The notes beneath the pieces were generated by a model that was given only the letters and a program-made list of their open reading frames with translations, was not told the DNA's origin and did no database searches. From an uncultured delta proteobacterium (GTDB lineage: Bacteria > Desulfobacterota > Desulfobacteria > Desulfobacterales > SG8-13), in contig CAWKCK010000005.1 in NCBI GenBank assembly GCA_963848135.1, positions 1-64,000 of the forward strand: a stretch of DNA of 64,000 nt, in the 5' to 3' direction. Shown in pieces: positions 27,799 to 51,096 of the stretch (position 1 is its first letter; every line of letters begins with the position of its first letter). The translations under genes and the position numbers were made by a program.

Positions 27799-27880
27799 CT
27801 ATCAGCCGTTGGATTTCCTATATATAGCCAGACGGTATCGTTATAATACACTAAATTTAAATAGTTACGAGACTGGCAAG
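27799..27880 (+). repeat. Array site R1
   Basis: CTATC..TATAG-CCAGACG-GTATC..ATAGTTACGAGAC-TGGCAAG. Confidence 0.85.
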
Positions 27881-28205
27881 CTATTTTTACCAATGTGCCA
27901 CACCGTGGTATTGACGAATGTGTTGCTATTAGGTTATGCGTTTCTTGGGGTTATCTCAATCGGTACCGACTTCAGCGTTACCTAACGCCTGATGCTCTCG
28001 TAACCACACCGGTATAATTTACATTTTCCTCATCCATTTCTCACGGTCATTATTCAATCCCCTTTATACCTTAATTAAAAACCTTGGTACCTCTAAGTCG
28101 GCTATATTCATGTAGCTGCTCGTCATTCTCATTATTAAAAGGGGGTGATGCCTCAATATACACAAAACTCTTAAATAAATAGAAATCATTGAAAAAAGAA
28201 AAGCC

Positions 28206-28703
28206 ATGTCTCTGTATCGAATTTGTTCTGTTACTACTGCTATTATTTTATTTTTTGGTTTCGTAGCAATCGATTGTGCAGTGGCTGGAGAAAAGGTAAA
28301 GATAAAGGCATCCGGTACAAGCATTAATACCAAGTGGCACGAAATAGAAGTCGGTGACGCAGATGGACATGTAATTGCTGTATTTCAGAATACACAAGCT
28401 TGGACTAATGATACAAATGGAGAAAAAATGACGGCCTATAGTAGGGGCACCATGGACCTCCATAAAAATACCGGGCAAGCTACTATGGAAGGTTATAGTA
28501 TAATGACTTATCCTAGTGGCGATAAACGGTACGCAAGTTTTGAGGGTAAAATTGTGAGTAAGGGTAAATGGCAAGGGACATTTACTGACATAGATGGTAC
28601 AGGCAAATTTAAAGGATGTGCAGGGGGAGGCACCTGGGAATCCGAAAGTCTGGGGCCTGGAATATCTCAAATCGTAGCCGAAAGAGAGAGGACTTTCCAA
28701 TAA
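28206..28703 (+). CDS. Secreted beta-rich hypothetical protein
   Basis: Signal peptide; C-terminal GTGKFKG..GGGTW shared with 29315-29782. Confidence 0.7.
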   Translation: MSLYRICSVTTAIILFFGFVAIDCAVAGEKVKIKASGTSINTKWHEIEVGDADGHVIAVFQNTQAWTNDTNGEKMTAYSRGTMDLHKNTGQATMEGYSIMTYPSGDKRYASFEGKIVSKGKWQGTFTDIDGTGKFKGCAGGGTWESESLGPGISQIVAERERTFQ

Positions 28704-28846
28704 AAATTGATTGGATTACAAAGTTAACGGCAGGGTTATAATTGGCGCTGCCGTTTTCATCAAAATCTTAAAATGATGTTTCCACTAATAATTCAGTATT
28801 CAACTTCGTTTACACGTTTCTGACATCTACCAGAGAGAGGAAACAG

Positions 28847-29263
28847 ATGAAAAGGATTTCATTTGTAATCTTCGTTTTATCCGCTTTCCTGCTGTTCAAT
28901 TCATGCGATACTCCAATGAATAAATACAGTGCGAAAAATGAGGAAGAAAAAAAGATAATCGCACTGTTAAATACTTATTGCAATGCACGGAATAGTGCAG
29001 ATTTGGCTAAGCTGCAATCAACCTTCCATGATGATGGAATATACATATCAGGACGTGGAGGGCAATTCACAAAAGACAAGATTCTAGAGACAAATCCTCA
29101 AGATTGGTTGGATAATAAGGTTGATCTATATAATCCCGATTTTAAGGTTATGGGTAATGAAGCAAAGGTTACAATGACTGCAAAGTATGGTTCATTCAAA
29201 ACAAATCAAATCTATACATTGGTAAAGGAAAGTGACAACTGGCTTATTATGAAGGTGGAGTAA
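28847..29263 (+). CDS. NTF2-like (DUF4440-type) lipoprotein
   Basis: Lipobox-like FNSC; helix..FHDDG..strand pattern of the NTF2 fold. Confidence 0.65.
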   Translation: MKRISFVIFVLSAFLLFNSCDTPMNKYSAKNEEEKKIIALLNTYCNARNSADLAKLQSTFHDDGIYISGRGGQFTKDKILETNPQDWLDNKVDLYNPDFKVMGNEAKVTMTAKYGSFKTNQIYTLVKESDNWLIMKVE

Positions 29264-29314
29264 TTCAGGCAAGTGCTGAGTTATACTTTTAATCATTAGA
29301 AAGGGAGGTTCACT

Positions 29315-29782
29315 ATGATTCAGTGGATAATAATTCTACTTCTCACGATATTACTGTTTGCCCCCGCGTCTCAGGCCGCTGATCCCTTTGAAGCCAACGC
29401 CTGCCGGTCGGGGACGATGACAGTCGTTCAGGGTAGTAAGGAACTTATGATATTGGGAGTAGAGTTAAAAGGGATTCTCAATAGCAACACGGAAATGCTA
29501 AATAATACCTCTGAAATTTGTGTGGGCATATTCAAAAAAATGGGCGAAGAAGTTACTCAAATGGGGTATTGCAAATATTTATACCCCAATGGCGATATTA
29601 ACGTTGTAGAATGGGACGGAAGTAGAAATGAGGGTAAATGGAATTATTTATTAGGTACCGGTAAATGGGAAAACATAAAGGGCGGTGGAACTTGGAAAAA
29701 TCTCCAACGCGCCAAATCTATTGCCGATGGAACTTTTCAAAACTGTATTATGTTGAATGGAACTTATGAATTACCGAAATAG
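29315..29782 (+). CDS. Secreted beta-rich hypothetical protein
   Basis: GGGAGG RBS, signal peptide ending ASQA, GTGKWENIKGGGTW. Confidence 0.75.
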   Translation: MIQWIIILLLTILLFAPASQAADPFEANACRSGTMTVVQGSKELMILGVELKGILNSNTEMLNNTSEICVGIFKKMGEEVTQMGYCKYLYPNGDINVVEWDGSRNEGKWNYLLGTGKWENIKGGGTWKNLQRAKSIADGTFQNCIMLNGTYELPK

Positions 29783-29871
29783 TTCGTTATAAATTTTATG
29801 GGTTAAAATACGAACAAAGTTTCTCGGAATAAAAGGCAGACTCAGATAATAATAACTCTGCCTTTTTCTAT

Positions 29872-29972
29872 CTGCTATGTTCCAGCATCTATCAACCGAC
29901 GGATTTCCTAAATATATCAAGGGCGTAACACAACTAATCGCCTCTTAAAAGAGTTTATCATAGGTTGGCAAG
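29872..29972 (+). repeat. Array site R2 (degenerate core)
   Basis: CTGCTAT..CTATC..GGATTTCCTAAATATA..TGGCAAG at conserved spacing. Confidence 0.65.
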
Positions 29973-30082
29973 GCTGCAAAACCTTCCGGTTAAAATCGTC
30001 CGGCATCGGATGGCCCGAAAATTATCTCAGATTGTGATCGCATTTTCGCCCCTGATTAGGACAACCTTGTGGATATCCTTTA

Positions 30083-30142
30083 GATTGCCGAACCGTATCG
30101 CAACAATTGACACGATTTCCGATAGTTGGTTTAGTGGCTAAG
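30083..30142 (+). repeat. Array site R3
   Basis: GATTG-CCGAACC-GTATC..GATAGTT..TGGCTAAG. Confidence 0.75.
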
Positions 30143-30497
30143 ATATTTTATTTTTGATTGTTAGCCTCCCTATTAATTAATTACCAGTTACTCTCTATTT
30201 CGCCCGATTGACCCTTCATGATAATTATTTTTGCGAATTATGCGTATTTTCCGTATAATTGTCATAATCAGTGCAAAAAACGTCTAATTCGGAAAATAAT
30301 TTTAAATTTTTATTTTTGTAGAAACTTTAATCTATTTGTTATTTAATGTATTTCCGTTTGGTTAGGATATTTGGGGGGAGGGAATGGTTGGTTCACAGTT
30401 TAATTTTGCTGGATAAGGGATTTAACGATTCCGGTGTCAAAGACTGGTAGCCGCATAATATACAATATAGAGAATAGAAAACAAAGGGGATACTAAG

Positions 30498-31103
30498 TTG
30501 CCACCAAATAATTATGTTCTCATCGATTTCGAAAATGTTCAACCTAAGAATATTGAAATATTAAAAAAACATCCTTTCAAAATCTTTGTTTTTGTTGGAG
30601 AGAACCAGGTCAGAATTTCATTTGAAATTGCAAATGCACTACAAGAATTTGTTAGTGAAGCAAAATATATTAAAATTTCAGGTAACGGAAAGAACTCATT
30701 AGATTTTCATATTGCATTTTATATCGGCCAATTGTCACTTCAAGATCCAAAAGGCTATTTCCATATTGTCTCTAAAGACACTGGATTCGACCCACTTGTT
30801 AAGCATTTGCGAATAAGTAAAATCAAAGTAAATCGGGTAAATGATTTGGCAGAAATACCTATTCTTCGTATTTCTAATACAACAGATAAGGACGAAACAA
30901 TAAATACAATAGTAAAAAATCTTGCAGGTCGGGGGCAATCGAGACCGAGAAAAGTAAAGACACTGTCTAATACAATCAATTCATTATTCACTATCAAACT
31001 AGAAGAAAATGAATTAATGAAGGTAATTAAAACACTTCAAACCAAGAAATATATACATCTTAACCAAGAAAACGTTTCATACAATTTACCAAAAAATCTC
31101 TAA
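30498..31103 (+). CDS. PIN/NYN-like domain protein
   Basis: LIDFENV, GKNSLDFHI, SKDTGFD acidic motifs. Confidence 0.82.
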   Translation: MPPNNYVLIDFENVQPKNIEILKKHPFKIFVFVGENQVRISFEIANALQEFVSEAKYIKISGNGKNSLDFHIAFYIGQLSLQDPKGYFHIVSKDTGFDPLVKHLRISKIKVNRVNDLAEIPILRISNTTDKDETINTIVKNLAGRGQSRPRKVKTLSNTINSLFTIKLEENELMKVIKTLQTKKYIHLNQENVSYNLPKNL

Positions 31104-31168
31104 CCAGCCGTTTCACTCAATATTTTGCACTACGCGCAAATTCGCAAATAAACTTATAGTTAAAACTA

Positions 31169-31268
31169 CTGCTATATTTCTTGCGTTTTTATCTGGTCGA
31201 TTTGCTTTAGATAGTCACACCGTATCGTCACAAATGATGCGTTTTCAGATAGTTGGACTAATGGCAAG
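31169..31268 (+). repeat. Array site R4
   Basis: CTGCTAT..TTATC..GATAG-TCACACC-GTATC..GATAGTT..TGGCAAG. Confidence 0.85.
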
Positions 31269-31644
31269 GTACCTTCAATCAAGTCCACCGACTTTATCCA
31301 CCGATAAAATACAACCAAAAATATTACAATGTGATATAGCTATCTGAGGTAATATTATTTTTATTGACATTGTTGCTCCCAAAAAATAACTAATACGGAT
31401 ACATCTTCATTCGCGACTGATGCTCATTTTCTAACAGGCTTCTATTATGAAATATCTCTAATCAAGCTGACCCCATCTGGTATTAGTTCTCTTAATATTC
31501 TAAATCCTGATTACAATTTTCGGCAAACACGATAAAAGGCAAATTTTCGTCTGGGGGAAGATGGAAAAAACAGATTGTTTTAAATATACAATCTACTTGC
31601 ATTTAACGGTTGACTGATTCTTAAAAGAGGAAAAAAGGGGGGGT

Positions 31645-32526
31645 ATGAAGGTAGCAAAAAGAAATAGTTTCTTATTCTATTCTACAATTATATTATCATT
31701 ACTTCTCTTAAATGGACACTATTTAAGTGCAAAGGCAGATATAGTCGTGACGCTTGATAGAAGTAGCGATCGTGGGCCTGTGACCTGTGCAACATCTATC
31801 GATCCGGTTGAGCAAAGTTACATTTTAATAGAGGTACCCAATGCCATTGCCTCTCTTGTTCTATTTGTCGGAGGGAACGGCAGACTATTCATCAATAATA
31901 TGCAACTTGGTATTAATATAAATAATTTTCTCTCTCGCAGCCGACATTTGTTTGCCTCATTCAACTTCAATGTTGTAGTTATTGATGCAGCAACAGATTT
32001 TCTTAGCTGTCAGTATGGGCTCAGCGGTTGGCGCCTGAGCCCAGAACATGTTAGTGATATAAATGCGGTAATACAAGATCTGCGTGGGCGTTATAACGAA
32101 CTACCCATTTGGGTGGTTGGTACGAGTCGGGGATCTGTATCTGCAGCACAAGCCGCAGCCGCTTTGTCACCCGAATCAGGCGGTCCCGATGGGCTGGTGT
32201 TAACATCTAGTGCAACAATAGGGAGCACGGAACCGTACCATTTATCTGTTTTCGATGTTGATTTAAAAAATATAACAGTCCCTACTTTGATTACTACACA
32301 CAAGCAAGATAAATGTTGGGTAACACCACCTGAGGATACAAAAGTAATTAAGGGCCGCCTTGTTTCTGCACCAAAAGTGGGTACCCATAAATATAATGGA
32401 GGTTTCGAACCAATATCAGACCCATGCCAAGCATTATCGTGTCATGGATATTTCGGAATAGAGCCGAAGGTGGTTAAAGATATTGCAGAGTGGATTGAAA
32501 AGCAGGTCGGTAAAAGAGCTAAATGA
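31645..32526 (+). CDS. Secreted alpha/beta hydrolase
   Basis: Signal peptide; GTSRG nucleophile elbow, D.C..TPP, CHGYFG. Confidence 0.8.
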   Translation: MKVAKRNSFLFYSTIILSLLLLNGHYLSAKADIVVTLDRSSDRGPVTCATSIDPVEQSYILIEVPNAIASLVLFVGGNGRLFINNMQLGININNFLSRSRHLFASFNFNVVVIDAATDFLSCQYGLSGWRLSPEHVSDINAVIQDLRGRYNELPIWVVGTSRGSVSAAQAAAALSPESGGPDGLVLTSSATIGSTEPYHLSVFDVDLKNITVPTLITTHKQDKCWVTPPEDTKVIKGRLVSAPKVGTHKYNGGFEPISDPCQALSCHGYFGIEPKVVKDIAEWIEKQVGKRAK

Positions 32527-32713
32527 TACATTAACCAATTCAAGGAAGCGTCAGGCAGCGTCAAAACAGGCGTTGCCTTTTTATAAACAATAGTATCATG
32601 TTTATGGTTATTATAATCTGTAAAATTTAGTATCTAAAATTACCAATAATAATTTATTCCTCCAAAATGCAGATTATTCCGACGAAACTGTAATCAGCCC
32701 AGAGTAAATGTAT

Positions 32714-32814
32714 CTGCTATAACTTTTGAACTATCACCAAGGATGATTTTCTCGAGACAGCCGGATCATATCTTTCTAAAATCCCCGGGAACCGAAAATC
32801 CAGTTACTGGCAAG
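32714..32814 (+). repeat. Array site R5
   Basis: CTGCTAT..CTATC..GACAG-CCGGATC-ATATC..CTGGCAAG. Confidence 0.8.
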
Positions 32815-32851
32815 CTATTTGGAGTCAAACCTTTTTATTGGGGATTAATCG

Positions 32852-33495
32852 ATGAAATCATCTAAAATATCCTTGCTATATTTGGTAGCCATTCTATGGC
32901 TATTGTCACTGCATGCTTGCGCAGGTGGATCAAATAATAAAAATACCCAACCGGAAAAAATTTACCCGATAGAGGAAAGGAGTATTATACAAGATGTTGA
33001 AACAATCCAATTAGCAACCATCGATTCTATCCCGATGAGGGCCCCAATAAAAAATAATTACGATAATATTATTTTCAGAAGTTTCGAGTGTAGCGAACAG
33101 TTTAAGAAAGATTATCCAGATGCGCGAAAGAATTGTAAGGAATCTATAATTTCAAAATTGAAAAATAAGAAAAATTATCTATCTGTAACTGATAATATAG
33201 AAAAGCCAATTCCAGGAAAAAGTTTATTTATAGACATGAAGATTATTGACATGCGAATAGTGACTGAATCAGCACGGGCTCTGGGAATTTATATGGCTGG
33301 AGCTTCTTATATGGATGTTTTGCTTAAATATGGGATGCTGATACCAACCAAATTATGCATAAAAAGCATCTATACACATATAGTAACCCATTTGGTTCAT
33401 ATTGGTCAGGCGGAGCATCTGACCGGAATCTACCATCTGATTTCGGAGTACTCATCGGAGAATATATTTTTAGACTTGTACCCGGAACACAATAA
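32852..33495 (+). pseudogene. Lipoprotein (DUF4410-like) with a 1-nt frameshift near 33326
   Basis: Lipobox LHAC; alternative frame gives IWDADTNQ..GGASDRNLPSDFG..PGTQ-TAA(33495), ending just before site R6. Confidence 0.6.
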
Positions 33496-33509
33496 ATCAA
33501 ATGCTCTAT

Positions 33510-33610
33510 CTGCTATAGTTCCAAAGATATCATCCAGCTTGATACCATTAATATAGCCATACCATATCGTCAGTTTCTATTTAATTTCTTTAGGTTATGG
33601 TATTGGCAAG
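33510..33610 (+). repeat. Array site R6
   Basis: CTGCTAT..ATATC..TATAG-CCATACC-ATATC..TTGGCAAG. Confidence 0.8.
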
Positions 33611-33719
33611 GAATATTTAGTTGCCTGTCACGTTGATGCATTGACAACTTGTTTCTTGCCAAATAGTAGTAATCAAATTGAGTTTTCAAAACCCTAAAAG
33701 ACATAGAAAGGAGTGAAAA

Positions 33720-34238
33720 ATGAAAAAATTAACTAATGTGGTGCTTATAGTTATTTTTGTTTTAATCATTGCTCCTGGACTCTCCGCAGCTAAAGAAGAG
33801 ACGGTCATAATCAGGGAGGGTTTTACTGTTCCAGATGGTAAGAGGCTTCTGATTGATGATATAACTGTTATGTGCAACCTTCTTATACCAACGTTTTTTA
33901 ACTGGCCAAATCCGGCTGTTCAAATGTTATCTGGATCTTCTACTCCAATTTTGAGAATAACATACCCCAACGATAAGTGTCCTGAAAATATTACCGGGGA
34001 GGATGAGCCACATTGTCCATTCCAAGATCATTCTCTTGGTGTTGGTTCAAATTATTCCGCAATAGCACAACATCCAGATGGAAGAAATGCAATTAGCATT
34101 TATGCAGGCCGCCAAACGTCAATTATTGCCGACGAAGGAGCAATTCTTTATGGATTGTGTCCAGTAAATCGTGCCGATGTATTAGTGGGAGCTGAATTGA
34201 TCTCCGTGGGGATCGGTCGTCTAATAAAAATGCCATAG
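33720..34238 (+). CDS. Secreted hypothetical protein
   Basis: AAGGAG RBS, signal peptide, 172 aa. Confidence 0.7.
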   Translation: MKKLTNVVLIVIFVLIIAPGLSAAKEETVIIREGFTVPDGKRLLIDDITVMCNLLIPTFFNWPNPAVQMLSGSSTPILRITYPNDKCPENITGEDEPHCPFQDHSLGVGSNYSAIAQHPDGRNAISIYAGRQTSIIADEGAILYGLCPVNRADVLVGAELISVGIGRLIKMP

Positions 34239-34429
34239 TTTCTGTTATGGCCGATAAAAAGCTTAGTCAGAAATAGCTCTACATTTTCATTTCTGCAATT
34301 AAGCGAAATTTTAGTAACTCGGAAACCAAGAAGGCCGACTTCAACATATGGTAGTTGGACTTTTTCGCTTTTGATTGTGATAAGATCAATGTATCGTGGA
34401 AAAAACAGTCATGGCGAAATTCAAGCCTG

Positions 34430-34486
34430 CTGCTATGAACTTTGAGCTATCTCTGGTCGATCTGCTTGAGATAGCCAACCGGTATC
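34430..34486 (+). repeat. Array site R7 (left arm and core only)
   Basis: CTGCTAT..CTATC..GATAG-CCAACCG-GTATC; right arm replaced by the integrase terminator. Confidence 0.8.
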
Positions 34487-34497
34487 TAACGAATAGA

Positions 34498-34528
34498 GGG
34501 GTGAAGCCAACCAAGGGATTCACCCCTT
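34498..34528 (-). terminator. Hairpin immediately downstream of the integrase
   Basis: GGGGTGAA..TTCACCCC. Confidence 0.5.
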
Positions 34529-34532
34529 TCGT

Positions 34533-35370
34533 TTAGCAATATAGGTTTTCAATCCACCTCATCGCCTCTGTATCACTGATTGTTCCAAGATACCGCTGAG
34601 TGGTTGCAAGATTTGCGTGACGGAGAATGACCTTGCTCACGATTTCGATTGGCGCTCCGGATCGAGAGGCATAAGTAGCCGAATGCCGCCTCAGGTCATG
34701 GGGTCTCAAATGGATACCGACCATCTTTCCCGCTTTTTTTACAACCAGCCTGGCCGCTGTATAGGTAATCGGAAAAATGCGATCATCTGGCCTGTTATAA
34801 GTCTTAATGGCATAGTCACGAAGCCTGGCAGCCACTTTCTGCGGGATGAACACAATCTCATGCTCTTTACCGCTTTTCGGTTCTCGCAGGATCAGCTTTC
34901 GATCCTGGATGTCATTCACTCTGAGTTTTAACACTTCACCGATTCGCATCCCGCCACGGGCCATCAGTTCAAGCATCAAACGATTACGAATTTTGGTGGT
35001 TCGGAAAATGATTTCATCAACGGTCTCTTTTTCGATGATTTTCCATCTTGATACCACCCTTTCCCGATAAAGCTTTCGGATCATGGGTGTGTCACACGGA
35101 TTGCCTATGTCGGGGTCGACGTTATTGCGGAAAAAATTGAAAAAGGCGGACAGGTGGGAATAACGGACTCGCTTTGTGTAGGGCTTGTTACCGTTGGTAA
35201 AGCTGTTAAGAAAGGAAAGGACATCATCTGGTGTAACCTGGGCAATCTCGACCTCACCGAACTCATGACAGAAACGGTCAATAACTGACCAGTAGGACCG
35301 CACAGTATTTTTTTTTCGAGTGGGTCTTGTGGTAATCGATCCAGATTTTTGCGGCTTTTGTGACTTTCAT
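34533..35370 (-). CDS. Tyrosine recombinase (about 278 aa) with a frameshift in an A9 run
   Basis: Catalytic R (GMRIGE), K (PKSG), HDLRR, LRH, Y (TQRY); ATG 35370 after GGGGG gives MKVTKAAKIWIDYHKTHSKK, which joins NTVRSYW only if A9 (T 35308-35316) is read as A8. Confidence 0.88.
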
Positions 35371-35429
35371 GGTTTACCCCCTTTGGTTATTGATGTTTGA
35401 CATTCGGGGAAATCCCGAGGTAAACTGAT

Positions 35430-35488
35430 GATAGCCAGATCGTATAAGCAGTTTCAACGGTATTTTCGATAGTTACAAGACTGGCAAG
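35430..35488 (+). repeat. Array site R8 (core and right arm)
   Basis: GATAG-CCAGATC-GTATA..GATAGTTACAAGAC-TGGCAAG. Confidence 0.85.
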
Positions 35489-35963
35489 CTAGTTTTAACG
35501 AGGTGCCACATAGTGGCAATTGACAACATTATCCATATATGAAAATCAATGATCAAGCGAAAGCTCATTCTGAATCTCCGCTGGATGTTCCATACGTTAT
35601 CAAACTTTTCACCTGACTATTCGTCTCCTCTTCATCAACTCCTGGCAATTAAATTCTATACCTAAATAACCAATAGTAACCGGCAACCTAAAACCATCAA
35701 GAGGAGGTTTCGTGATAGGGTTTGTCGATAACCCAATATGCCAAATTGCCTAAGGGGATGGTTTCGTTTTTTTTATTCTTTGCGGAAACAGGTTCTTCTT
35801 GTTGGCCAAGAACCTGATGGCCAATGCAGACGCATTTAACAGTACAACGGCTACAGGATTAAGGAAATAATGACTTAAGCGTTCGAGTAAGGCAATGAAA
35901 GTAAATTGCTGTGCGCAGGTCATACCGCTGTGAGGTCCAATTCTTCTTTTAGGGGGATCATCC

Positions 35964-36968: not shown

Positions 36969-37154
36969 AGAGACGATAATTAACAGAGGTCTCTTAGTAT
37001 GTTAAAATGTAAATTCAATCTTACATGACAAAACATGAGGTCGAGTGAATACTGACAAACTACAAATACCGTCTGTACTAATAACGTCAGCGGAAAACTC
37101 AAGTGAGCTTCCCACGTTATCCAATGAATCGAAAATAAGCCTAATTGACGATAG

Positions 37155-37254
37155 CTGCTATGACCATTGAGTTATCATCTGGTCGATTTGATTGAGATAG
37201 CCGGATCGTATCGTCACAGATTGTTTAATTTCTGATATTTATGCCTTTGGCAAG
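37155..37254 (+). repeat. Array site R9
   Basis: CTGCTAT..TTATC..GATAG-CCGGATC-GTATC..GATAT..TGGCAAG. Confidence 0.85.
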
Positions 37255-37530
37255 CAAGTCAGATTTTGGATAAGGCTTAAATTGTTGTGCTTTCATTTTT
37301 ACGTATTTGCACTATTGCGGTTATTCAGATACTGGTACGGAAAAACATTTTACGCTGTAAAGTTTTAAACATACAAAAGGATTCGCAGATTGTGAAAAGT
37401 ATTACATAATGTTACACAATATGCCCTCAATTTTTTACATCTACCTTGTGGCATATGCTCAACTTGCTGAATTTATTTTCAATTAATCTGCTTATATTAC
37501 TTTATTATTGCACGTTTTTTGCATCTTTAA

Positions 37531-40531: not shown

Positions 40532-40562
40532 GGTCGATTTCGTGGGATAGCCATAACGTACC
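40532..40562 (+). repeat. Array site R10b (core)
   Basis: GGTCGATTT..GATAG-CCATAAC-GTACC. Confidence 0.6.
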
Positions 40563-42484: not shown

Positions 42485-42546
42485 TGTGCTATTTTCATCT
42501 AACTTCAATATAGGAGGTAGCCCGATGCTGTTAAAACAGGCACTAA

Positions 42547-42969
42547 TTGCCGTTTTTCCCGGTTTCCTTTGTGGTGGAATGGATGTGCAGGATGTTGACC
42601 AATATGCCGGATGTTGCCCCGTCCATGCATATGAATCGGACCGTAGCTCGATATGAGGATGGTTATGATGTCGTTCTTAGAGATGCGCCGGCGGTCATAG
42701 TCGCCCACGCCCATAAAGAAAATCGTGTGGCATCAGCAGCCTGTAACACCACACAGACTTACTTGGAATTGGCCTCAACCACCCTGGGAATGGGGGCCTG
42801 TTGGGCAGGCTATTTTAATGCGACTGCAACTACTTTTCCGCCTATGAAAAAGGCCTTAGTCCTGCCCGAAGATCACAAGGCATTTGGTTCCATGATGGTT
42901 GGATATCCAAAGTATCGATATCAACGCATGCCAATCCGGAATGTACCTAGAATCACGTGGCGACTATAA
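42547..42969 (+). pseudogene. C-terminal fragment of a nitroreductase family protein
   Basis: DAPAVIVAH, LEL....GMGACWAG, VGYP; N-terminal part absent. Confidence 0.7.
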
Positions 42970-43000
42970 AAAGAGAAAAGCAGCTCGTTGGATTACATAT

Positions 43001-43057
43001 TATAGCCAGATCGTATATACAGTATTAATGCTATTTTAGATAGTTACGAAACTGGCA
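43001..43057 (+). repeat. Array site R11, split by IS110
   Basis: TATAG-CCAGATC-GTATA..GATAGTTACGAAAC-TGGCA; the remaining AG resumes at 44608. Confidence 0.85.
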
Positions 43058-43199
43058 CCCATTAAAAGGCTTCCGTCAACAAAAAACACCACGCCATCGC
43101 AAAGGGGGTATATTTTTTTGCAGGAACAAAATTCAGTTCGACGTTCGTCCTATTTTTTTTACCTGCTCCCGAAATTTATTTTTGTTTTCTGTGCAGCGT

Positions 43200-43487
43200 C
43201 ACTTAATCTGCTAACAGGCACCCATCAGGATCAAGGCCAAAGAGAGAATATCTAAAGCCCCTGGTCCGTAATCGGACCCCAGAAAAAGATCGGTACCTTG
43301 TCAAAGCCAATTGGGTTGTCACAAGAGATAGGGCTCCTTTCGGGCCAGCCATTGCGAGCTTATGACAAGGGCAGATCGAAAAAGCGGACACCCGCCTGAA
43401 TCTATATTGTAGGGAGTGCAGCGGTGGCCAACCAAGCAATAGGGATTTTAACCACCAATAGCAAAGGATCACCGCTGCAGTCCCAAA
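43200..43487 (-). ncRNA. Putative bridge/seek RNA of the IS110 element
   Basis: Non-coding, hairpin-rich; contains segments matching the target (CCUUG / CUGG) and the donor junction (AUGGGUG / GAUUA); boundaries approximate. Confidence 0.55.
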
Positions 43488-44508
43488 CTATTGCGCAAGA
43501 AGCTTTTCACGAAAGGGAACCTGATCTCTCATGATATAGTAGCAGATGGCGGGCCAGTTTGTTGCCCAGCGCTTTGGTTGCCAGACTTGTATTGGCCTGA
43601 GCAACCTTGCGGTTATAGTATCGTCTAAACTGTTCATTATACCGACGGCCCAATTGAGCGGCTTCAGTGAGGGCCCAGCTCAGGTAGCGATTGCCGTTTT
43701 TACGATTGCCACACCCCTTGCTTTTTCCGTCGGACAACCGCTTGGATGGCACGCACCGACAGTAGGAAGCAAAATTGCCGACCTTTGGAAAACGATTGAT
43801 GTCACCCACTTCCAGCATGATAGTCATAGCCAGAATGTTACCGATACCGGGTATTGTCAGCAATTGCCTGAACCCTTTTTTGAGTTTTACTCTTTCTATT
43901 ATTGCTTTCTCTATACTTTTGATCTTCTGCTTGAGAAAATTTATTGTATCCAAACTGGTTTGAGCAGAGAAAATCAGGTACTCTTCTTTTAGCCACCTTT
44001 CCAATGCTTCGACGTTCATCTTTCGGATGTCACTGGTGCTTATTTTTACTGCACAGCATCTTTGAATGAACGATTGCAGGCTCAAGATGTTCGCGGTCTT
44101 GTGCCGGACTAAAAACATCCGTTTGCGTGCCAGGTCCCGCACCGGGCGATGTTGCTTTGGGTAAATGTAGCCTTCGGGCAAAATACCGAGTATGAGAAGT
44201 TGGGCCAGAAAAAAGGCGTCATGCTGATCGTCACTGTACTTTAGCCCTTCGTATTGTTTGATTGCCGACGGGTTGGCCAAGTGTGCAGAGCCATATCCCG
44301 CATCCATGAGGCCATCTACGAGCCAGTACCAGTTGTAGGTGGACTCTACAACAAATCCCTTTAATCGTTTTTTGAAGGGTTCTAACGTGTGAAGAATCTG
44401 GTCAAGGTCATTGGCCAAACGCTTTTTGAAAACACGGTTCAATGCATCGTCTATGATTCCGATGTAGGTATTTCTTTAATGAAGATCCAGACCAGCGTAC
44501 AGTTCCAT
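43488..44508 (-). pseudogene. IS110-family transposase/recombinase with a premature stop and a C-terminal frameshift
   Basis: MELYAGLDLH-TAA (codon 11), VVEST, SDD.HDA, TIPGIG, SDGK; extra base near 43548 before ICYYIMRD. Confidence 0.85.
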
Positions 44509-44882
44509 AGGGCACCTCCTACGTTATAGGGTTATGGTTGGGATCAACCCTTTATAACGAATCGCTGTGTCCTTTGCGAACGGGAGGTGCCTTTTAGATG
44601 ATTATCAAGATATTATTACCAATGTGATACGCTGTGGTATTGACGTTTGAATTACTATTGGGTTATGCGCTTCTTTGGGGACATTTTAATCGATACCGTC
44701 TTAAACCATACCAAATGCCTGTTGCTCTCGTCATCGCTATTACCCAATTCTTTCGAACCCATCCATTTCTTACGGTCATTGATCGTTCCCATTTCTATCT
44801 CAATAACACCATTAAATCCTTGAATTTCGTTTTTGGCTCGTTGCTATTCACATATCTGGGCAATATCTATCAAGGGGGGAAG

Positions 44883-46679
44883 ATGAGTAAAAATTGGATG
44901 TTGATCGCAATCGTTTTCATCGTATCATTGGTGGTGTTCACAGCCCCGCTTGTAAACCACCAGGCCGCAGCCCAGGAATGGAACTGGCAGAACCCTTTGC
45001 CCCAGGGTAACCGCCTCAATGGGATTTGGGGAAGCTCGACCAGCAATGTCTTTGCCGTTGGCGAAGGTGGCACTATAATCCGTTACAACGGTACCAGTTG
45101 GGGTAGTATGACTACCACTACCACCTCAGCAGACCTCTATGGTGTTTGGGGAAGCTCGGCCAACAATATCTTTGCTGTGGGTCAAGGCGGCACCATCATC
45201 CGCTACAACGGCAACAGCTGGACTTCCATGGCCAGCGGCAGCTCACAGAACCTAACTGATATCTGGGGAAGCTCGGCCAATAATGCCATTGCTGTCGGCC
45301 TTAACGGCACCATCCTGCGCTATGACGGCAGCAGCTGGACCACCATGCCCAGCGGCATATTAGAAGATCTCAATGGTGTCTGGGGAACATCAAGCAGCGA
45401 TGTCTTTGCCGTCGGCGAAAAAGGCACCGTCATTCATTATGACGGCATTAGTTGGAACACCATGACAGCTACCGGCACCTCAGAAAACCTCTTCGGCGTT
45501 TGGGGAAGCTCGGGCAGCAATGTCTTTGTTGTCGGTGGTAACGGAGCCGTCATCCGCTATGACGGCTCCAGCTGGAGCCCCATGAGCGGTATTCCCGATT
45601 ATGTCGGTCTTTACGGGGGGATTTGGGGTAGCTCAGGGAGTGATGTTTATACTGCAGGATATTCCGGCCACATCTTCCACTACGACGGCCAGACCTGGAC
45701 CTCAGTGGGCTACCTGGGCACATCAAACTATTTCTATGGAATCTGGGGAACTTCCGCCAGTGATGTTGCTGCCGTTGGTACGGGTGGGGCTATCTACCAC
45801 TACGACGGCAGCAGCTGGAGCCCCACGAGCACTGGCGATACCCTCTATTATCTGGGAGGTGTCTGGGGAAGCTCGGATAACAACGTATTTGCCGTTGGCC
45901 GTAGCGGCACTCTCTTCCAATATGACGGCAGCAGTTGGAGCTCAACAAGGATTGTCACCAGGTATTTCGATGGCATCTGGGGAAGCTCTGCCAGCGACGT
46001 TTTTGCCGTGGGACAACTCGGCACCGTCGTGCACTACAACGGCTCCAGTTGGGAAAATATGACAGGCACCGGCACTGCAGAGTGGCTCAAGGGCATCTGG
46101 GGGAGCTCTGCCAGCGATGTCTTTGCCGTGGGACGAGGCGGCACCATTCTTCACTACGACGGCGGTAGCTGGAGCCTCATGACCAGCGGCACGTCCAATT
46201 CCCTCAACGGCATCTGGGGAAGCTCGGGCAGCAATGTCTTTGCCGTGGGCTGGAACGGTACCATTCTGCACTACGACGGCAGCAGCTGGAGCCCCATGGC
46301 CAGCGGCACGTCCGATTACCTCAGCGGCATCTGGGGGAGCTCTGCCAGCGACGTCTTTGCTGTGGGGGGAAACGGCACCGTCCTTCACTACGACGGCAGC
46401 AGCTGGAGCCCCATGACCAGCGGCACGTCCAATGCATTCAACGGCGTTTGGGGAAGCTCGGGCAGGAATGTCTTTGCTGTGGGGGTGAGCGGCGCCATCA
46501 TTCGCTACAACGGAAGCAGCTGGAGCCCCATGACCAGCGGCGCCTCCAATACGCTCCGTGGTATCTGGGGAAGCTCTGTGGGCGACGTCTTTGTTGTGGG
46601 CGACTATGGAACCATCCTTCATTTCGAGGTGCTTCCAAACCACGTTAACTGGCTGTTTTTGCTGCTCTTGTATGAGTGA
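44883..46679 (+). CDS. Secreted beta-propeller protein with ~39-aa GIWGSS.SDVFAVG..GTILHYDGSSW repeats
   Basis: GGGGGG RBS, signal peptide, about 14 tandem repeats; ends HVNWLFLLLLYE. Confidence 0.85.
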   Translation: MSKNWMLIAIVFIVSLVVFTAPLVNHQAAAQEWNWQNPLPQGNRLNGIWGSSTSNVFAVGEGGTIIRYNGTSWGSMTTTTTSADLYGVWGSSANNIFAVGQGGTIIRYNGNSWTSMASGSSQNLTDIWGSSANNAIAVGLNGTILRYDGSSWTTMPSGILEDLNGVWGTSSSDVFAVGEKGTVIHYDGISWNTMTATGTSENLFGVWGSSGSNVFVVGGNGAVIRYDGSSWSPMSGIPDYVGLYGGIWGSSGSDVYTAGYSGHIFHYDGQTWTSVGYLGTSNYFYGIWGTSASDVAAVGTGGAIYHYDGSSWSPTSTGDTLYYLGGVWGSSDNNVFAVGRSGTLFQYDGSSWSSTRIVTRYFDGIWGSSASDVFAVGQLGTVVHYNGSSWENMTGTGTAEWLKGIWGSSASDVFAVGRGGTILHYDGGSWSLMTSGTSNSLNGIWGSSGSNVFAVGWNGTILHYDGSSWSPMASGTSDYLSGIWGSSASDVFAVGGNGTVLHYDGSSWSPMTSGTSNAFNGVWGSSGRNVFAVGVSGAIIRYNGSSWSPMTSGASNTLRGIWGSSVGDVFVVGDYGTILHFEVLPNHVNWLFLLLLYE

Positions 46680-47065
46680 TGAGGAGTGTATTGCTTTGAA
46701 TAGATTCACATTTTGATCGTGAATTGCAGTAGATCGTGTTTATCTCTGAATGTTCAATTCACAAATCCGGATTGATCCCACAAATTTCCTGTGTAGTTGC
46801 CTCCGTTAACATCGGGCCGTGGGCACCTGGACTGAGCGAAGGTGGTTCGCCTATACCTATAATATCTCAGTTTTTAAACATCCAGAATAATTTATGGTAC
46901 GTTATCTGTCATAATTTGTCATCTAAAAAGTACAGATAATGTACACTCGTTAATGGGAACACTCGCGCAGTATATCAACCATACATCGTTAACGGAAGCT
47001 TGGTCTGATATATTTTGATATCTACATTTTTTCAAATGGTTAAGAAAATTTCTATGATCCCACAT

Positions 47066-47148
47066 CTATCACCCTGCGGATTTCCTGAATATATCCAGAC
47101 GGTATCGTTATAATAGACGAAAATTTAGATAGTTATGAGAATGGCAAG
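47066..47148 (+). repeat. Array site R12 (closest to R1)
   Basis: CTATC..GGATTTCC..TATAT-CCAGACG-GTATCGTTATAATA..GATAGTTATGAGAA-TGGCAAG. Confidence 0.85.
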
Positions 47149-47201
47149 CTGTACGACATAAAACCTATTATTTCTATTAATAATGGTTAGTTATAGAACA
47201 T

Positions 47202-48122
47202 TCAATGTATTGGTTTTTGCCCTTTGTCAAGAGTTTTTTCACCGTCACCGGTGTGGCGTTGAAGCACCTTGTTCATGGCGCTATAGTAATCACGTCGAAC
47301 CTTCGGGTTGGAGACCCGACAATACCGCTGCGTGGTTTTTATGCGCGTGTGGCCCAGCAGATCCTGGATGGTAACCAGGTCGGCATCGGCGTTGAGCATC
47401 TGCGTGGCCATCGTATGACGTAGTTGATGGCAACAGACTCTCAGGCCTGCTTTCTTGGCATAATACTGCATACGGTGCTGAATGCCGCGAACCTTCAGAG
47501 GTTGGCCTCTAAAACGGCCTTTTTCCACCAGGAAGAGTTTTCTTACTCTCGAATGCGGTCTGGTCTTGAGATAAGCCACAAGTGCGAGATAGGCGTCCTT
47601 GCTCAAATAGACCACACGGTCTTTTAGCCCCTTGCCCTGGTAGACAAACACTTGATACCGCGGCAGGTCCAAGGCACTCAGAGTGAGATTGGTTACCTCT
47701 TCGACCCGGAGTCCGCAGCGCAGCATCAGCTTGAAGATGGCCCGGTCTCTGGGATTGTCGATGACCGCAAAGAGCGCAGAGATCTCTTCATCCCGCAGGT
47801 AGCGCGGCAGTGGCCTGGAGAGCCTTAAGGTATACCCGCGCTTGACCGGATTGCTCATTACAACCTCCTCTTCGTTGATCAGGTAATCATAAAAGCTGCG
47901 GATGCTGTCCAGGTAGCAATTGACGGTCTTGGGTTTCAAACGCTTGCTGCGCAGATAATCGATGAAGCCCAATAGTTTCTTGTGGGTGACAGCCTCCACG
48001 TGCATATCCAGCCAGACGACAAACTGCTTCAGGGTGCTCATATAGGTTCGCAGCGTATGGGCGGAGTAATTGCGTCGCTTTAAGAACCTACGGTAGTTGA
48101 TAATCGAGTTGGTAATGTCCAT
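47202..48122 (-). CDS. Tyrosine recombinase with N-terminal SAM-like domain
   Basis: GLRVEE, GKG, HQLRH, LGH, TQRY. Confidence 0.92.
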   Translation of the reverse strand: MDITNSIINYRRFLKRRNYSAHTLRTYMSTLKQFVVWLDMHVEAVTHKKLLGFIDYLRSKRLKPKTVNCYLDSIRSFYDYLINEEEVVMSNPVKRGYTLRLSRPLPRYLRDEEISALFAVIDNPRDRAIFKLMLRCGLRVEEVTNLTLSALDLPRYQVFVYQGKGLKDRVVYLSKDAYLALVAYLKTRPHSRVRKLFLVEKGRFRGQPLKVRGIQHRMQYYAKKAGLRVCCHQLRHTMATQMLNADADLVTIQDLLGHTRIKTTQRYCRVSNPKVRRDYYSAMNKVLQRHTGDGEKTLDKGQKPIH

Positions 48123-49176
48123 GGAGTTCTCCCTTTTCGACGATGGCCATGGCTTTGTAGTATTGTTCCCGGCGCGTGTTGTCGGTCAGCCGGGCATAGC
48201 GGCGGGTCATTTCGATGCAGCTGTGCCCGAGAAGCTCCTGCAAACACTGCAGCGGCATACCGGCGTTGAGCAGCTCTGTGGCGAAGGTGTGCCGCAGGCA
48301 GTGCAGGGTATATCCCTTGTGGGCCAGTCCGGATTTTTGCAGATAGGCGTTGAAGATTAGGCGGGCAGCCGCATAACCCAGGGCTCGCCCGCAGTTGCCG
48401 TAGAAGATGAACCCGCTTTGTCTTCTCCTGGTGTTCAGCCATTTTATTAGAGCGCTTCGGGCATCATCGCTCAAATAGACAACGCGTCCGACCCGGTTCT
48501 TTTGTGCTTCTATGATTTGTATAATATTTTCCCGCAGGTTGAGATCTTCCACTTTGGTGCCGAGCAGCTCGCCGATGCGCATCCCGGTTCGCAACAATGT
48601 CAATACCAGGGCGCGATCACGCGGTTTTTTGACTACGGCCAACAGCTGCTTGATATGATCCGGATCAATGGCCCGCGGCAGGGCATCGGGAACTTTAATG
48701 CGCAGTTTGCGCTTGAGCAGATCCGGGTGAAGCACATCGCGATCGATCAAAAAGTTGATAAAGGCATACAGGCAGCGCAACTGAGTGCTGACCGTATTGG
48801 GTGAAAGCCCGCGGTCTTGCTCATGTTCAACGAATTCGGCGATGTGCTCGCGGTTGATGGCTTGCAGTTGATCGATGCCGCTGTCTTTGAGAAAACGTAA
48901 AAAACCGGTAATGTTGCCACCGTTGGATCGGATCGTGTTGTGTCGGCAATTGCGTCGATGCTGATCGCGCAAATATGCCTCGACATGCTCCGCAGCCAAG
49001 AGATCCTGCACGGTGATTTTGCGTAGGATTCGGTCAATAAGAGGATTGAAAGTGAAGGGATTTCGATCGAAATTGGAACGGATCGAGGGTGAACGCGTTG
49101 ATTGGTCCTTGCCCGTCCGATACCTTTTGCGTTGATCGGTCTGGGTTTCTGCGGAAACGTGTTCGAGGTTCATCAC
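48088..49176 (-). CDS. Tyrosine recombinase with N-terminal SAM-like domain
   Basis: GMRIGE, QKN, HCLRH, LGH, TRRY; overlaps the next gene by 35 nt. Confidence 0.92.
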   Translation of the reverse strand: MMNLEHVSAETQTDQRKRYRTGKDQSTRSPSIRSNFDRNPFTFNPLIDRILRKITVQDLLAAEHVEAYLRDQHRRNCRHNTIRSNGGNITGFLRFLKDSGIDQLQAINREHIAEFVEHEQDRGLSPNTVSTQLRCLYAFINFLIDRDVLHPDLLKRKLRIKVPDALPRAIDPDHIKQLLAVVKKPRDRALVLTLLRTGMRIGELLGTKVEDLNLRENIIQIIEAQKNRVGRVVYLSDDARSALIKWLNTRRRQSGFIFYGNCGRALGYAAARLIFNAYLQKSGLAHKGYTLHCLRHTFATELLNAGMPLQCLQELLGHSCIEMTRRYARLTDNTRREQYYKAMAIVEKGELHGHYQLDYQLP

Positions 49177-49420
49177 TGCCTCCTTTCGTTTTTTGCAGAA
49201 ATAACAGGCAGATAATGACCTCTGTAACGCTTTCAGTCAATTACCTTTTTATGTCGTACAGTGGCAAGATAACCATACCTTTCTTGTAGCCGTCCTCTAA
49301 CCCTCAAACAAACATCCTGACCTTATTAACTTAACTTTTGTAGAATTTAAACTCCATGTTAAATTAGACAGGTGATACTGATTTTGATATAGTATAATAA
49401 AAATTGAAATGCAGTTTCAA

Positions 49421-49500
49421 TCCAGAACAAAGCTAAACCTGTCGTGAGGCAGAGACAGAAAACCACGGACCTGTTAGCAGGCAGCCGGGTTACCACGGAA
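49421..49500 (+). ncRNA. c-di-GMP-I (GEMM) riboswitch
   Basis: G-CTAAA-CCTGTC-GTGA-GGCAGA-GACAGAAAACCACGGACCTG..CAGGCAGCCGGGTTACC. Confidence 0.8.
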
Positions 49501-49510
49501 TAATATTGGA

Positions 49511-49547
49511 AGCCGAGTTGCCGCATTGGTAACTCGGCTTTTATTTA
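49511..49547 (+). terminator. Riboswitch expression-platform terminator
   Basis: AAGCCGAGTTGCC-GCATT-GGTAACTCGGCTT followed by TTATTT. Confidence 0.8.
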
Positions 49548-49738
49548 ATGGCGGGAATGGTTGAAAAGAATCGAGATTGCTCAAATAGTATCTCAAAAAT
49601 TAGATGCCGGACTTTTCGATGAACAAAGCTTCAGTCGATCGTAACGGAAACCGGGATGTTGCCTATCCGAGTGATAGCGTATTTTTACTCATGGTCACCT
49701 GCATCTTCGTTAGAAGAAGAAGGTGTTAATAAAATAAA

Positions 49739-50923
49739 ATGAAAAAAAATAAAGGCAAACCACACAGCTTTAAGAAACTACGAAGGCAGGCTGAGAAACG
49801 ACTGCTTGAAAGAGATACCGATCTGTCAAATTTGACCTTAAAGGATATAAATGCGCTGATCCACGAATTGGAGGTGCATCAGATTGAATTGGAAATGCAA
49901 AACGAAGAGTTGCGACGAGCACAGATGGACCTGGAAGCAGCACGGGACAAGTATACTGATTTATATGAATTTGCGCCTGTTGGATATTTTAGCATTGATG
50001 ATAAGGGGTTGATTTTAGATGCGAACCTTAATGGTGCAACGATGCTTGGTATAGAAAGAGGAAAACTGCCAGGTCGATTCTTCACACAGTTTATTACCAG
50101 GGATGATCAGGATGTTTTTTACTTTCACAAACAAAAACTTTTTAAAACGATAACGAAACAATTCTGTGAGCTAAGAATAACGAAAAAAGACGGAACTGAA
50201 TTTTATGCTCAGGTAGAAAGCAGCCCCGTCATTGACGAGGCCGGAAATTGCAGTTCGTTACGTTTTTCACTAAGCGATATCACAGAGCGCAAGCAAGCAG
50301 AGCTGGCACTCATTGCAAGCAAATCAGAGATAGAGTCCATTGTTAAAACAGTGCCGGACATTATCTATCGATTAGACCAGCATGGCCGCCTAACTTTTGT
50401 GAGTGATTCAGTGAAACGATATGGATACCTACCAGAAGAACTTATAGGCACAAACGTCATGAAAATCGTTTATCCCGAGGACAGAACAAAGACAATTCGC
50501 AGAATCAAGGAGAGACGCACAGGAGTTAGGAGAAAAAAATCATTTGAGGCAAGACTTATAAGCAAAAATCGAACGACGGTCTCTTTTGAGGTTTTCATGA
50601 TCTCGGCAGAAGGACTGTATTCACCTGCAAAGTTTGGGTTGGGTGAATTTCTTGGAACCCAAGGCATCGCCAGGGACATAACCGCGCTTAAACAGGCTGA
50701 AGATGAACGCGAAAAGCTCATCACAAAATTACAAGAGGCTTTTGACAATATTAAAACGCTGAAGGGGCTACTGCCCATTTGTGCTAATTGTAATAAAATT
50801 CGGGATGATAAAGGGTATTGGAATCAAATCGAATCCTACATCAGGGACCACTCCGATGCAGAATTCAGTCATAGCATTTGCCCTGTCTGTGCCGAGAAAT
50901 TATATGGTTATTTGAAAGAATAG
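49739..50923 (+). CDS. Double-PAS sensor with a C-terminal Cys-rich domain and no kinase
   Basis: HELEVHQIELEMQNEEL coil, two PAS/PAC (DITERK, RDIT), LPICANC..HSICPVC tail. Confidence 0.85.
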   Translation: MKKNKGKPHSFKKLRRQAEKRLLERDTDLSNLTLKDINALIHELEVHQIELEMQNEELRRAQMDLEAARDKYTDLYEFAPVGYFSIDDKGLILDANLNGATMLGIERGKLPGRFFTQFITRDDQDVFYFHKQKLFKTITKQFCELRITKKDGTEFYAQVESSPVIDEAGNCSSLRFSLSDITERKQAELALIASKSEIESIVKTVPDIIYRLDQHGRLTFVSDSVKRYGYLPEELIGTNVMKIVYPEDRTKTIRRIKERRTGVRRKKSFEARLISKNRTTVSFEVFMISAEGLYSPAKFGLGEFLGTQGIARDITALKQAEDEREKLITKLQEAFDNIKTLKGLLPICANCNKIRDDKGYWNQIESYIRDHSDAEFSHSICPVCAEKLYGYLKE

Positions 50924-51038
50924 AATTATTAAGGGTATATATCCTGATAACGGTGTAACACGGGCGGGTAAACTTATGGCAGAGGTAAAACTTGTGGTAC
51001 CTCAAATCATATCACGTATTAGTTGAAAGTCGCGCCGG

Positions 51039-51096
51039 CTGCTATCTAAGGCAAATTTAACCACCATTGAAAAGCCACTGATAGCCAGATAATATA
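51039..51096 (+). repeat. Array site R13 (left arm and core; last site seen)
   Basis: CTGCTAT 51039; GATAG-CCAGATA with TAGCCA at +43. Confidence 0.6.

Follow-up and report, generated by a model that had tools for sequence, protein, structure and literature searches.

Integrons are, to our knowledge, the only well-understood bacterial machine for stockpiling and reshuffling single genes, and what has been learned of them concerns a single family of enzymes and a single, odd type of site that is single-stranded. The TnpI/IRS system of Tn4430 and the Xer system at cer and psi use sites of ~100 bp with additional copies of the binding word on either side of an inverted repeat in the center; each replicon or transposon has one such site, which serves to resolve dimers or cointegrates. 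In the pdif modules of Acinetobacter plasmids the sites are 28 bp long, dif-like, of alternating orientation and served by the host XerC/XerD. The attC sites of integrons are themselves reported targets of IS1111-attC elements and group IIC-attC introns (PMC3001079, PMC11187229). The subject of the present analysis is an integron-like gene array in a stretch of 64,000 nucleotides, referred to below as the window, which forms the start of contig 5 in the genome of an uncultured delta proteobacterium (6.03 Mb in 18 contigs designated C1, C17, C18, etc.; genome label G000). Its modules are parted by copies of a ~105-bp site, one of which harbors a gene for a XerA-like tyrosine recombinase.

The preliminary description of the window had reported about 14 copies of the site in one orientation, and these were used to seed a profile that was iterated with nhmmer over the whole genome. 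Twelve of the 14 proved strong (E ≤ 1.3e-7) and two weak (40532-40597, E 0.48; 51036-51100, E 0.027); all lie on the + strand, and the profile detects no copy on the - strand of the window, so both the number and the orientation hold. As the window copies seeded the profile, their matches are partly given by construction; a repeat search also recovers the family directly, and the 14 reported cores share one architecture. Genome-wide, the family comprises 80 copies at E ≤ 1e-4, distributed over about ten arrays, of which the window array is one. A same-strand neighbor lies within 12 kb of 70 of the 80 sites (mean 11.5 and maximum 24 in 500 random placements), and an opposite-strand neighbor within that distance of none. 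With 70 copies standing in co-oriented clusters, the motif was not observed to occur genome-wide before core genes, a distribution that would have told against a gene-capture role. The sites had been called always intergenic, which is mostly the case, five of the 80 sharing more than 40 nt with an open reading frame (ORF) of at least 100 aa. A co-oriented gene precedes 64 of 77 sites and follows 52 of 78, and the leaders behind the sites, which can hold riboswitches, have a median length of 243 nt. The described richness in AT of the 23-kb array applies to most 1-kb bins of 28-51 kb (GC 0.34-0.46, compared with 0.50-0.58 in most flanking bins) and does not extend to bins 38-39, 45-47, and 48-49 kb (0.53-0.55).

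The consensus of the 80 copies consists of CTGCTAT, CTATCA, the palindrome GATAGCC-N3-GGTATC, GATAGTT, and TGGCAAG, spread over about 105 bp. The outer blocks CTGCTAT and TGGCAAG are sharp and the copies diverge outside them, while a mean column identity of 61% marks the site subtypes as old and diverse. The first site of the window array, at 27780-27887, displays the complete order of a CTGCTAT-like block, CTATCA, the core, a GATAGTT-like block, and TGGCAAG. No consensus secondary structure is apparent, since RNAalifold returns 0 pairs on 47 full sites; single-strand DNA folds of ten sites have z values of -1.10 to +1.59, none of the ten being more stable than shuffles; and Rfam has no family for the site, its only matches in the window being two riboswitches. 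An attC-like hairpin or a structured RNA was rejected on these results, and the attC core words (RYYYAAC ... GTTRRRY) are absent from the consensus, in agreement with the earlier statement that the site is not attC. Lacking a fold, excess single-strand stability, and an Rfam match, the site is best read as double-stranded, an array of short words to which protein is predicted to bind. Two promoter readings were also rejected: a sigma-54 promoter at TGGCA, read by eye, misses the conserved GC at the -12 distance, and a consensus scan for a sigma-70 promoter at a fixed site position gave no recurrent + strand match.

The last site of the window array, a partial one, belongs to a subtype that also forms the final site of three other arrays (C17:30120-30222, C17:1248737-1248840, and C1:70411-70520). 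In this subtype the left arm reads CTGCTATCTAA... and the core is preceded by ...TTGAAAAGCC; it was sorted by a crude pattern and is not universal. The subtype closing four arrays may be a special terminal or primary site. Right behind the last site of the window, at 51141-51378, there is a dispersed repeat of ~220 bp, unrelated to the junction site, with more than 30 further copies on many contigs (85-94% identity, self-BLAST). It is also worth mentioning that the largest array (1213-1249 kb on C17) is followed, ~580 bp past its final site, by a tRNA gene (C17:1249421-1249491).

The protein encoded by the recombinase gene contains the Phage_integrase domain (Pfam, 3.4e-22) and a SAM-like N-terminal domain. 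Its best NCBIfam model is XerA, with 118.5 bits under a cut-off of 220, and it stays under every cut-off of the XerC, XerD, and XerA models. The integron integrase model TIGR02249 gives 52.9 bits for a cut-off of 265 and aligns to residues 2-165 only, and PRK15417 gives 37.2 bits for a cut-off of 435. The closest solved chains in the PDB are those of archaeal XerA (4a8e and 5hxy), with no IntI structure among the matches at E ≤ 1e-5. On these scores the enzyme is XerA-like and not IntI, in keeping with its earlier designation as a non-IntI tyrosine recombinase. Six homologues agree without exception in the catalytic residues R, K, H-x-x-R, H, and Y, and metagenomes contain a very large number of family members (5664 proteins at E ≤ 1e-10).

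A tblastn search of the genome yields six longer matches to the recombinase and one short fragment beside a partial site. All six longer copies are antisense to the array. Each is bracketed by two parts of a site, one matching profile positions 2-75 and the other 36/40-112, and hence has a copy of the core on either side. The same nested layout recurs in the congeneric genomes G006 and G003; co-location of the site with homologues of the enzyme, put forward earlier as a check, is seen in these genomes too. A promoter-like sequence, TTGAAA-18-TATCAT, at 35457-35428 on the - strand faces the window gene and overlaps the right-hand core; it probably drives the recombinase. A solo site at C17:1223153 joins a left arm and a right arm typical of recombinase units, the combination that excision between the two cores would leave, which makes it a candidate excision scar.

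Expression of the gene appears to depend on recoding. All six copies start with 21 codons in one frame and continue in the +1 frame, the switch being located at an A9 run or at G+A8. The A9 run of the window (T9 on the + strand) occupies 35308-35316, and a one-base slip is required for the full protein; homologues annotated as 278 aa carry one A fewer, and in-frame versions read HSKKNTVRSY. Two of the six copies look intact, that of the window and C17:1225259-1226026. A frame test was applied to 38 loci from reference genomes of other species that keep the N-terminus: 21 are shifted and stay open in the +1 frame over 230 codons or more, 20 of them with A9, one is in frame without the run, and 16 are decayed. 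The slip-requiring A9 state is also found in complete genomes of cultured Desulfosarcina. The run is a conserved recoding signal, not an assembly error, and its retention in 20 of the 38 reference loci argues for a maintained, regulated gene. Comparable runs are used by the transposase genes of insertion sequences.

Three types of mobile elements besides the nested recombinase insert at fixed positions of the site, and the one 105-bp site is the common target of four different mobile elements when the recombinase unit is included. The insertion sequence at 43058-44606 belongs to the IS110 family, which is defined by a DEDD transposase and by insertion at one fixed sequence; there are at least nine copies of it in the genome, and all five that were aligned lie inside TGGCAAG. 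An element of 2.1 kb carries two overlapping tyrosine recombinase genes, both matching Phage_integrase (Pfam, ~7e-36), and is present three times (in the window, at C17:1219865-1222008, and at C18:549337-551483), each time at the same site position and with a 7-bp duplication of TGGCAAG. If it formed a circle, its ends would create an inverted repeat around TGGCAAG resembling a classical recombinase core site. Group II introns occupy three arrays on contig C18. At all three loci RF00029 and D1-D4 models of Rfam score above gathering, and the intron ORFs combine RVT_1 with GIIM (reverse transcriptase and maturase), the ribozyme domains and enzyme that characterize group II introns. Insertion between CTGCTA and T, with junctions GTGTG... 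and ...TTGCC, was read in two copies; the third intron interrupts a palindrome that resembles the core and lies 35 nt upstream of a site. Near-identical copies of another insertion sequence, with a DDE transposase of 458 aa, were found at C17:1215000-1216530, C18:606431-607951, and C18:886997-888527; two of them are in or beside arrays, at no fixed site position.

The arrays differ between close relatives. G007, the closest relative and 94% complete, is collinear with the window on both sides, with ~5.2 kb devoid of the site standing in for window positions 23736-52772; the whole window array is absent from this orthologous locus. Polymorphism at the level of single cassettes was dismissed for this locus, since G007 misses the entire array and five relatives gave no match to the protein of the left flank. 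The products of ORFs 28206-28703 and 29315-29782, neighbors in the window, recur as parts of separate modules: the homologue of the former, in G007:C3, is followed by a site, and that of the latter closes an array in G006:C29 as its final gene. More generally, the same cargo modules are found in congeneric genomes beside different neighbors, with junctions at sites. Regarding the earlier question whether strains differ by whole site-to-site modules, the relatives share cargo with different neighbors, and the junctions map to both edges of the site as well as to its core.

The spread of the site was surveyed with a sequence-only covariance model in 15 other genomes of the genus and 25 outside it. 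Sites are present in 14 of the 15, with counts ranging from 0 to 85 per genome, and in three of the 25, namely one of the four genomes from other genera of the family and two of the 21 from other families. The recombinase is encoded by the cultured species Desulfosarcina variabilis, D. widdelii, D. alkanivorans, and D. cetonica. By-eye reading gives the order of the unit in cultured Desulfosarcina as full site, gene, and half-site, with CTGCTAT, GATAGGCC, and CTGGCAAG retained. The genus profile does not recognize Desulfosarcina sites and a strict regular expression finds few of them; one half-site was found repeated in D. widdelii.

Junctions were compared among 204 sites from the arrays of G006, G007, and part of G003. 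Forty pairs of sites share only the upstream flank and 43 only the downstream flank, most of them being copies of the recombinase, insertion sequence, or intron; both flanks are homologous in only three pairs, whose sites are nearly identical. Junctions at which the site is shared together with a homologous flank are uninformative on the crossover point. In the informative ones the body of a cargo module can meet a different site on either side. In the junctions examined the site begins directly behind the terminator of the preceding gene. Some of what had looked like breaks in the cargo just behind CTGCTAT, several cases in all, proved to mark where group II introns have their 3' ends, and a supposed core chimera at a site in G007:C3 was withdrawn, its partners being of similar subtypes between which the switch point cannot be placed. 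The identity of left arms correlates with that of right arms only partly (r 0.35), left arms at least 85% alike being paired with right arms 59% alike over a background of 48%. Core-left segments correlate at 0.12-0.27 with left-arm segments and at 0.01-0.05 with right-arm segments; the linkage of the arms falls between the two core halves. Taken together, the junctions and arms fit recombination at the core combined with exchanges at both edges.

We regard it as evenly poised whether these arrays are a lineage-specific gene-cassette system of the Desulfosarcinaceae, built by the nested recombinase on the ~105-bp site. The ~105-bp sequence would then be the recombination site of the small XerA-like enzyme, whose expression would be gated by the slip on the A9 run; acting on directly repeated sites, the enzyme would excise and re-insert site-bounded modules, its own gene included, and arrays of unrelated accessory genes would accumulate and reshuffle as in integrons, with different parts. 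The nesting across genera, the maintained recoding, the scar-like solo site, the reassortment of arms, and the integron-like ecology favor such a platform. Anatomy, nesting, recoding, array statistics, turnover between genomes, and the targeting by three other mobile elements are observed; we infer that the site is the substrate of the nested recombinase, at what point of it crossover takes place, and that the cargo is moved by this enzyme and not by the other elements. It is possible, and put forward tentatively, that this amounts to a second, independently evolved platform for gene capture, with a slippage-gated XerA-like recombinase and a guild of parasites converging with that of attC, platforms and parasites having evolved convergently at least twice.

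Several observations weigh against this reading. Site counts and intact recombinase are only weakly coupled: G007 holds 57 sites with no integrase match at E ≤ 1e-40, G006 (72 sites) and G003 (37 sites) have broken recombinase copies only, and four of the six copies in the genome of the window are broken. By-eye reading of the cargo pairs that remained after removal of mobile elements puts about six junctions right after CTGCTAT, about nine right after TGGCAAG, and two to three near the core, and a single crossover point could not produce junctions at three places. The intron, the IS110-family element, and the two-recombinase element all insert at these edges, and if their copies underwent homologous exchange and were later lost, the edge junctions could have arisen in that way. 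The three central bases are AAC or AAT in the left-hand core and AGA in the right-hand core of recombinase units, a difference that would not survive recent simple exchange. Finally, neither excision nor a circle joint at sites was present in the contigs of four metagenome DNA runs, which are short contigs of related populations sharing at best 0.22 of words; the circular modules proposed earlier were sought here and not met with. A skip from 28042 to 44772 in a single contig is explained by the paralogous leaders 27877-28075 and 44606-44804, and loose contig ends at 27824, 47142, and 47148, from single contigs each, agree with breakage in the core and near TGGCAAG. Capture of genes is a plausible reading that is still unproven. 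Much of the earlier proposal of a capture or shuffling system has stood, namely the non-attC site, the non-IntI enzyme, the tie between site and recombinase, the unrelated cargo, and its turnover; the movement of modules by the recombinase is the part left unconfirmed.

The junctions at the edges, the arrays without an intact enzyme, and the failure to observe excision keep two other explanations alive. The site might serve a host function, as a shared operator or protein platform, and be the landing pad of four selfish elements, among them a recombinase-only element of ~1 kb, the order of the cargo then shifting by horizontal transfer and homologous recombination between element copies instead of by capture. 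The fixed positions of the four elements, the clustering of junctions at their insertion points, and the persistence of sites where the integrase is broken or unmatched would all follow, and a host role is in line with the location of sites ahead of co-oriented genes with long, riboswitch-capable leaders and with the TTGAGA-like and TATAAT-like words that, read by eye, enclose the core palindrome in some copies. We nevertheless consider this unlikely: the consensus scan finds no promoter at a fixed position, promoter-like matches are not enriched in the sites (55 vs 44.1 ± 7.9 in shuffles), the cargo is functionally unrelated, and nearly all sites are confined to variable islands richer in AT instead of standing before core genes. 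Co-orientation, moreover, is higher upstream of the site than downstream, the site starts directly behind the terminator of the gene before it in the junctions examined, and no candidate regulator turned up, no search aimed at one having been made.

A non-autonomous element in the manner of REPINs, with their RAYT enzymes, or of miniature inverted-repeat transposable elements (MITEs) is quite improbable in our view, as free insertion should not give strict co-orientation within arrays and with genes. Solo sites would in that case be deletion derivatives of the recombinase unit, spread in trans, and the arrays would mirror a preference for insertion behind terminators in accessory islands, not capture. 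Recombination between the two cores of the unit would indeed yield a solo site, of which one exists, and the sharp outer ends with divergence beyond them, the copy numbers of 0 to 85 among congeners, and the many right-half sites that begin at the core agree with such an origin. Yet a filled and an empty site with conserved flanks were not found for either of the two solitary sites tested, relatives without the site also lacking one or both flanks; the pairs with both flanks homologous number only three, with nearly identical sites; and the subtypes are too old and diverse for a recent burst. That the repeat is merely the binding region of one transcription factor, with a recombinase gene adjacent by coincidence, is a notion to which we attach very little probability. 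Its several short GATAG and CTATC words, intergenic and upstream of co-oriented genes, would suit a regulon, but the position of the recombinase within the site is the same for all six copies here and recurs elsewhere in other genomes, the site is a target of three further mobile elements, the arrays are insertions or deletions between close relatives, and the copies are clustered instead of genome-wide.

The features of the array are listed in Table 1. Its cargo is functionally unrelated, as the Pfam assignments bear out, and several of the proteins match no Pfam family. The PIN, OmpA, and PAS proteins named earlier on the + strand were all recovered (3e-30, 1.6e-21, and 3.5e-23); the hydrolase label rests on a Hydrolase_4 match that is present but below its cut-off, and the proteins encoded at 37872-40220 and 44634-46679, previously called beta-propellers, have internal repeats but no Pfam family behind the name. 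The - strand genes of the array are the recombinase at 34533-35370, the IS110-family transposase, and two further tyrosine recombinases. ORFs 37872-38156, 38179-39345, and 39459-40220 share a repeat of ~141-160 nt encoding ELWKSDGT-type units, and the first two look like a single gene split by a stop or frameshift. The sequence at 42569-43057, which includes most of the truncated nitroreductase copy, is 94.9% identical to C17:45141-44653, the identity continuing through the site up to TGGCA. The leader of the repeat protein (44585-44804) is a paralogue of the leader behind the first site. Riboswitches had been noted in module leaders, and Rfam identifies two of the c-di-GMP-I class in the window; a third lies in a cassette-module leader on contig C18 (L006:12161-12243, - strand). 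Their presence in three leaders indicates that at least some cargo is under second-messenger control.

Table 1. Sites, cargo, and mobile elements of the window array, with the group II introns of contig C18
Feature	Coordinates	Strand	Evidence and remarks
Full junction site, first of array	27780-27887	+	Profile 3-111; E 3e-18; TGGCAAG at 27874
Three small ORFs in one site-to-site interval	28206-28703; 28847-29263 (DUF4440); 29315-29782	+	ORF calls, Pfam
Partial sites	29869-29957; 30062-30140	+	Profile 2-92; profile 25-103
PIN7-domain protein	30498-31103	+	Pfam PF18475, 3e-30
Full junction site	31167-31274	+	E 1.7e-21
Secreted hydrolase-like protein	31645-32526	+	Hydrolase_4 24.2 bits, below cut-off 27
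Full junction site	32711-32822	+	E 2e-14
Cargo ORFs before and after site 33507-33616	32852-33556; 33720-34238	+	No Pfam family
Full junction site	33507-33616	+	E 8.3e-15
Left part of split site	34427-34499	+	Profile 2-75; left arm and core, stops before recombinase terminator hairpin
XerA-like tyrosine recombinase gene	34533-35370	-	ATG 35370-35368; 278-aa protein after one-base slip
Right part of split site	35420-35496	+	Profile 36-112; second core copy and right arm up to TGGCAAG
Secreted protein with Ig-like domain hint	35964-36968	+	
Full junction site, top-scoring copy	37152-37260	+	E 4.6e-26
c-di-GMP-I riboswitch and repeat-protein ORFs	37532-37646; 37872-38156, 38179-39345, 39459-40220	+	Rfam RF01051 46.5 bits; internal repeats
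Full site and weak partial copy	40409-40515; 40532-40597	+	E 1.3e-7; E 0.48
OmpA-domain protein	41060-42484	+	Pfam 1.6e-21
Truncated nitroreductase copy	42547-42969	+	Pfam
Site interrupted within TGGCAAG block	42979-43061	+	Profile 24-106
IS110-family insertion sequence	43058-44606	-	Inside TGGCAAG of site; NCBIfam NF033542 162.4 bits, cut-off 140
Repeat protein	44634-46679	+	Internal repeats
Junction site	47052-47152 (nhmmer bounds)	+	E 3e-22; terminal TGGCAAG at 47142-47148
Two-recombinase element	47149-49261	-	Second TGGCAAG copy 49262-49268; 16-nt terminal inverted repeats
c-di-GMP-I riboswitch and PAS-domain protein	49422-49497; 49739-50923	+	Rfam 52.2 bits; PAS_9 3.5e-23
Last site, partial	51036-51100	+	Left arm and core only; E 0.027
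Group II introns in three arrays, contig C18	L004:9912-11283; L006:9053-10855; L005:12418-14593	-	

No description of this system was found in the literature, subscription journals lying outside the coverage of the search. New here are the genome-wide statistics, the targeting by introns and IS110-family elements, the exact duplication of TGGCAAG, the junction pattern with its three places, the arm linkage, and the weak coupling between site and recombinase. If the favored reading is true, evolution has arrived at cassette arrays more than once, a share of the accessory genes of marine sulfate reducers, which are abundant, escapes integron finders, and a simple pair of recombinase and site can be studied. 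Tests are feasible, since the complete genomes of cultured D. variabilis and D. widdelii contain related recombinase units. Even should the capture reading fail, a recombinase gene dependent on an A9 slip is conserved and a 105-bp site is the shared target of four mobile elements.

Xer systems at dif-type sites differ in number and size, with one ~28-bp site per replicon as opposed to 80 sites of ~105 bp here, and the Xer models remain below cut-off for the present enzyme. The sites of Tn4430 TnpI/IRS and of cer and psi have the same layout of ~100 bp, and by analogy direct repeats would favor deletion of the intervening DNA; here, however, 80 copies bound gene modules, and the enzyme is paired with the site by inference. 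As with repetitive extragenic palindromes (REP/REPIN) and their RAYT enzymes, and with MITEs, the repeat is multi-copy and intergenic and copies of it flank the gene of its cognate enzyme. That enzyme, unlike RAYT, is a tyrosine recombinase (Phage_integrase and SAM-like domains) and not an IS200/IS605-type Y1 transposase, and the 105-bp repeat has no hairpin and forms strictly co-oriented arrays in variable islands. The pdif modules are also gene modules bounded by sites of Xer-family recombinases, but the sites described here are 105 bp long, all direct, and have a recombinase gene of their own nested within.

The likeness to integrons is closest in the array: long and co-oriented, with unrelated accessory genes parted by one repeated site, with content that varies between close relatives, with a tyrosine recombinase tied to it, and with an IS110/IS1111-type element and group II introns that target the repeated site, as is reported for attC. 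In the integron, however, the enzyme is IntI, while that of the window is XerA-like (53 bits for the IntI model, cut-off 265); the site has neither the hairpin fold nor the attC core words; and the gene of the recombinase is an antisense one within the array, enclosed by a site and in need of the A9 slip. No attI or Pc-like head of the array was seen, the genes ahead of the first site differing between arrays, and the leaders of the modules, a few of them with riboswitches, have a median length of 243 nt. The tested features that define an integron all fail except the array itself, and the system looks like an undescribed counterpart of the integron.

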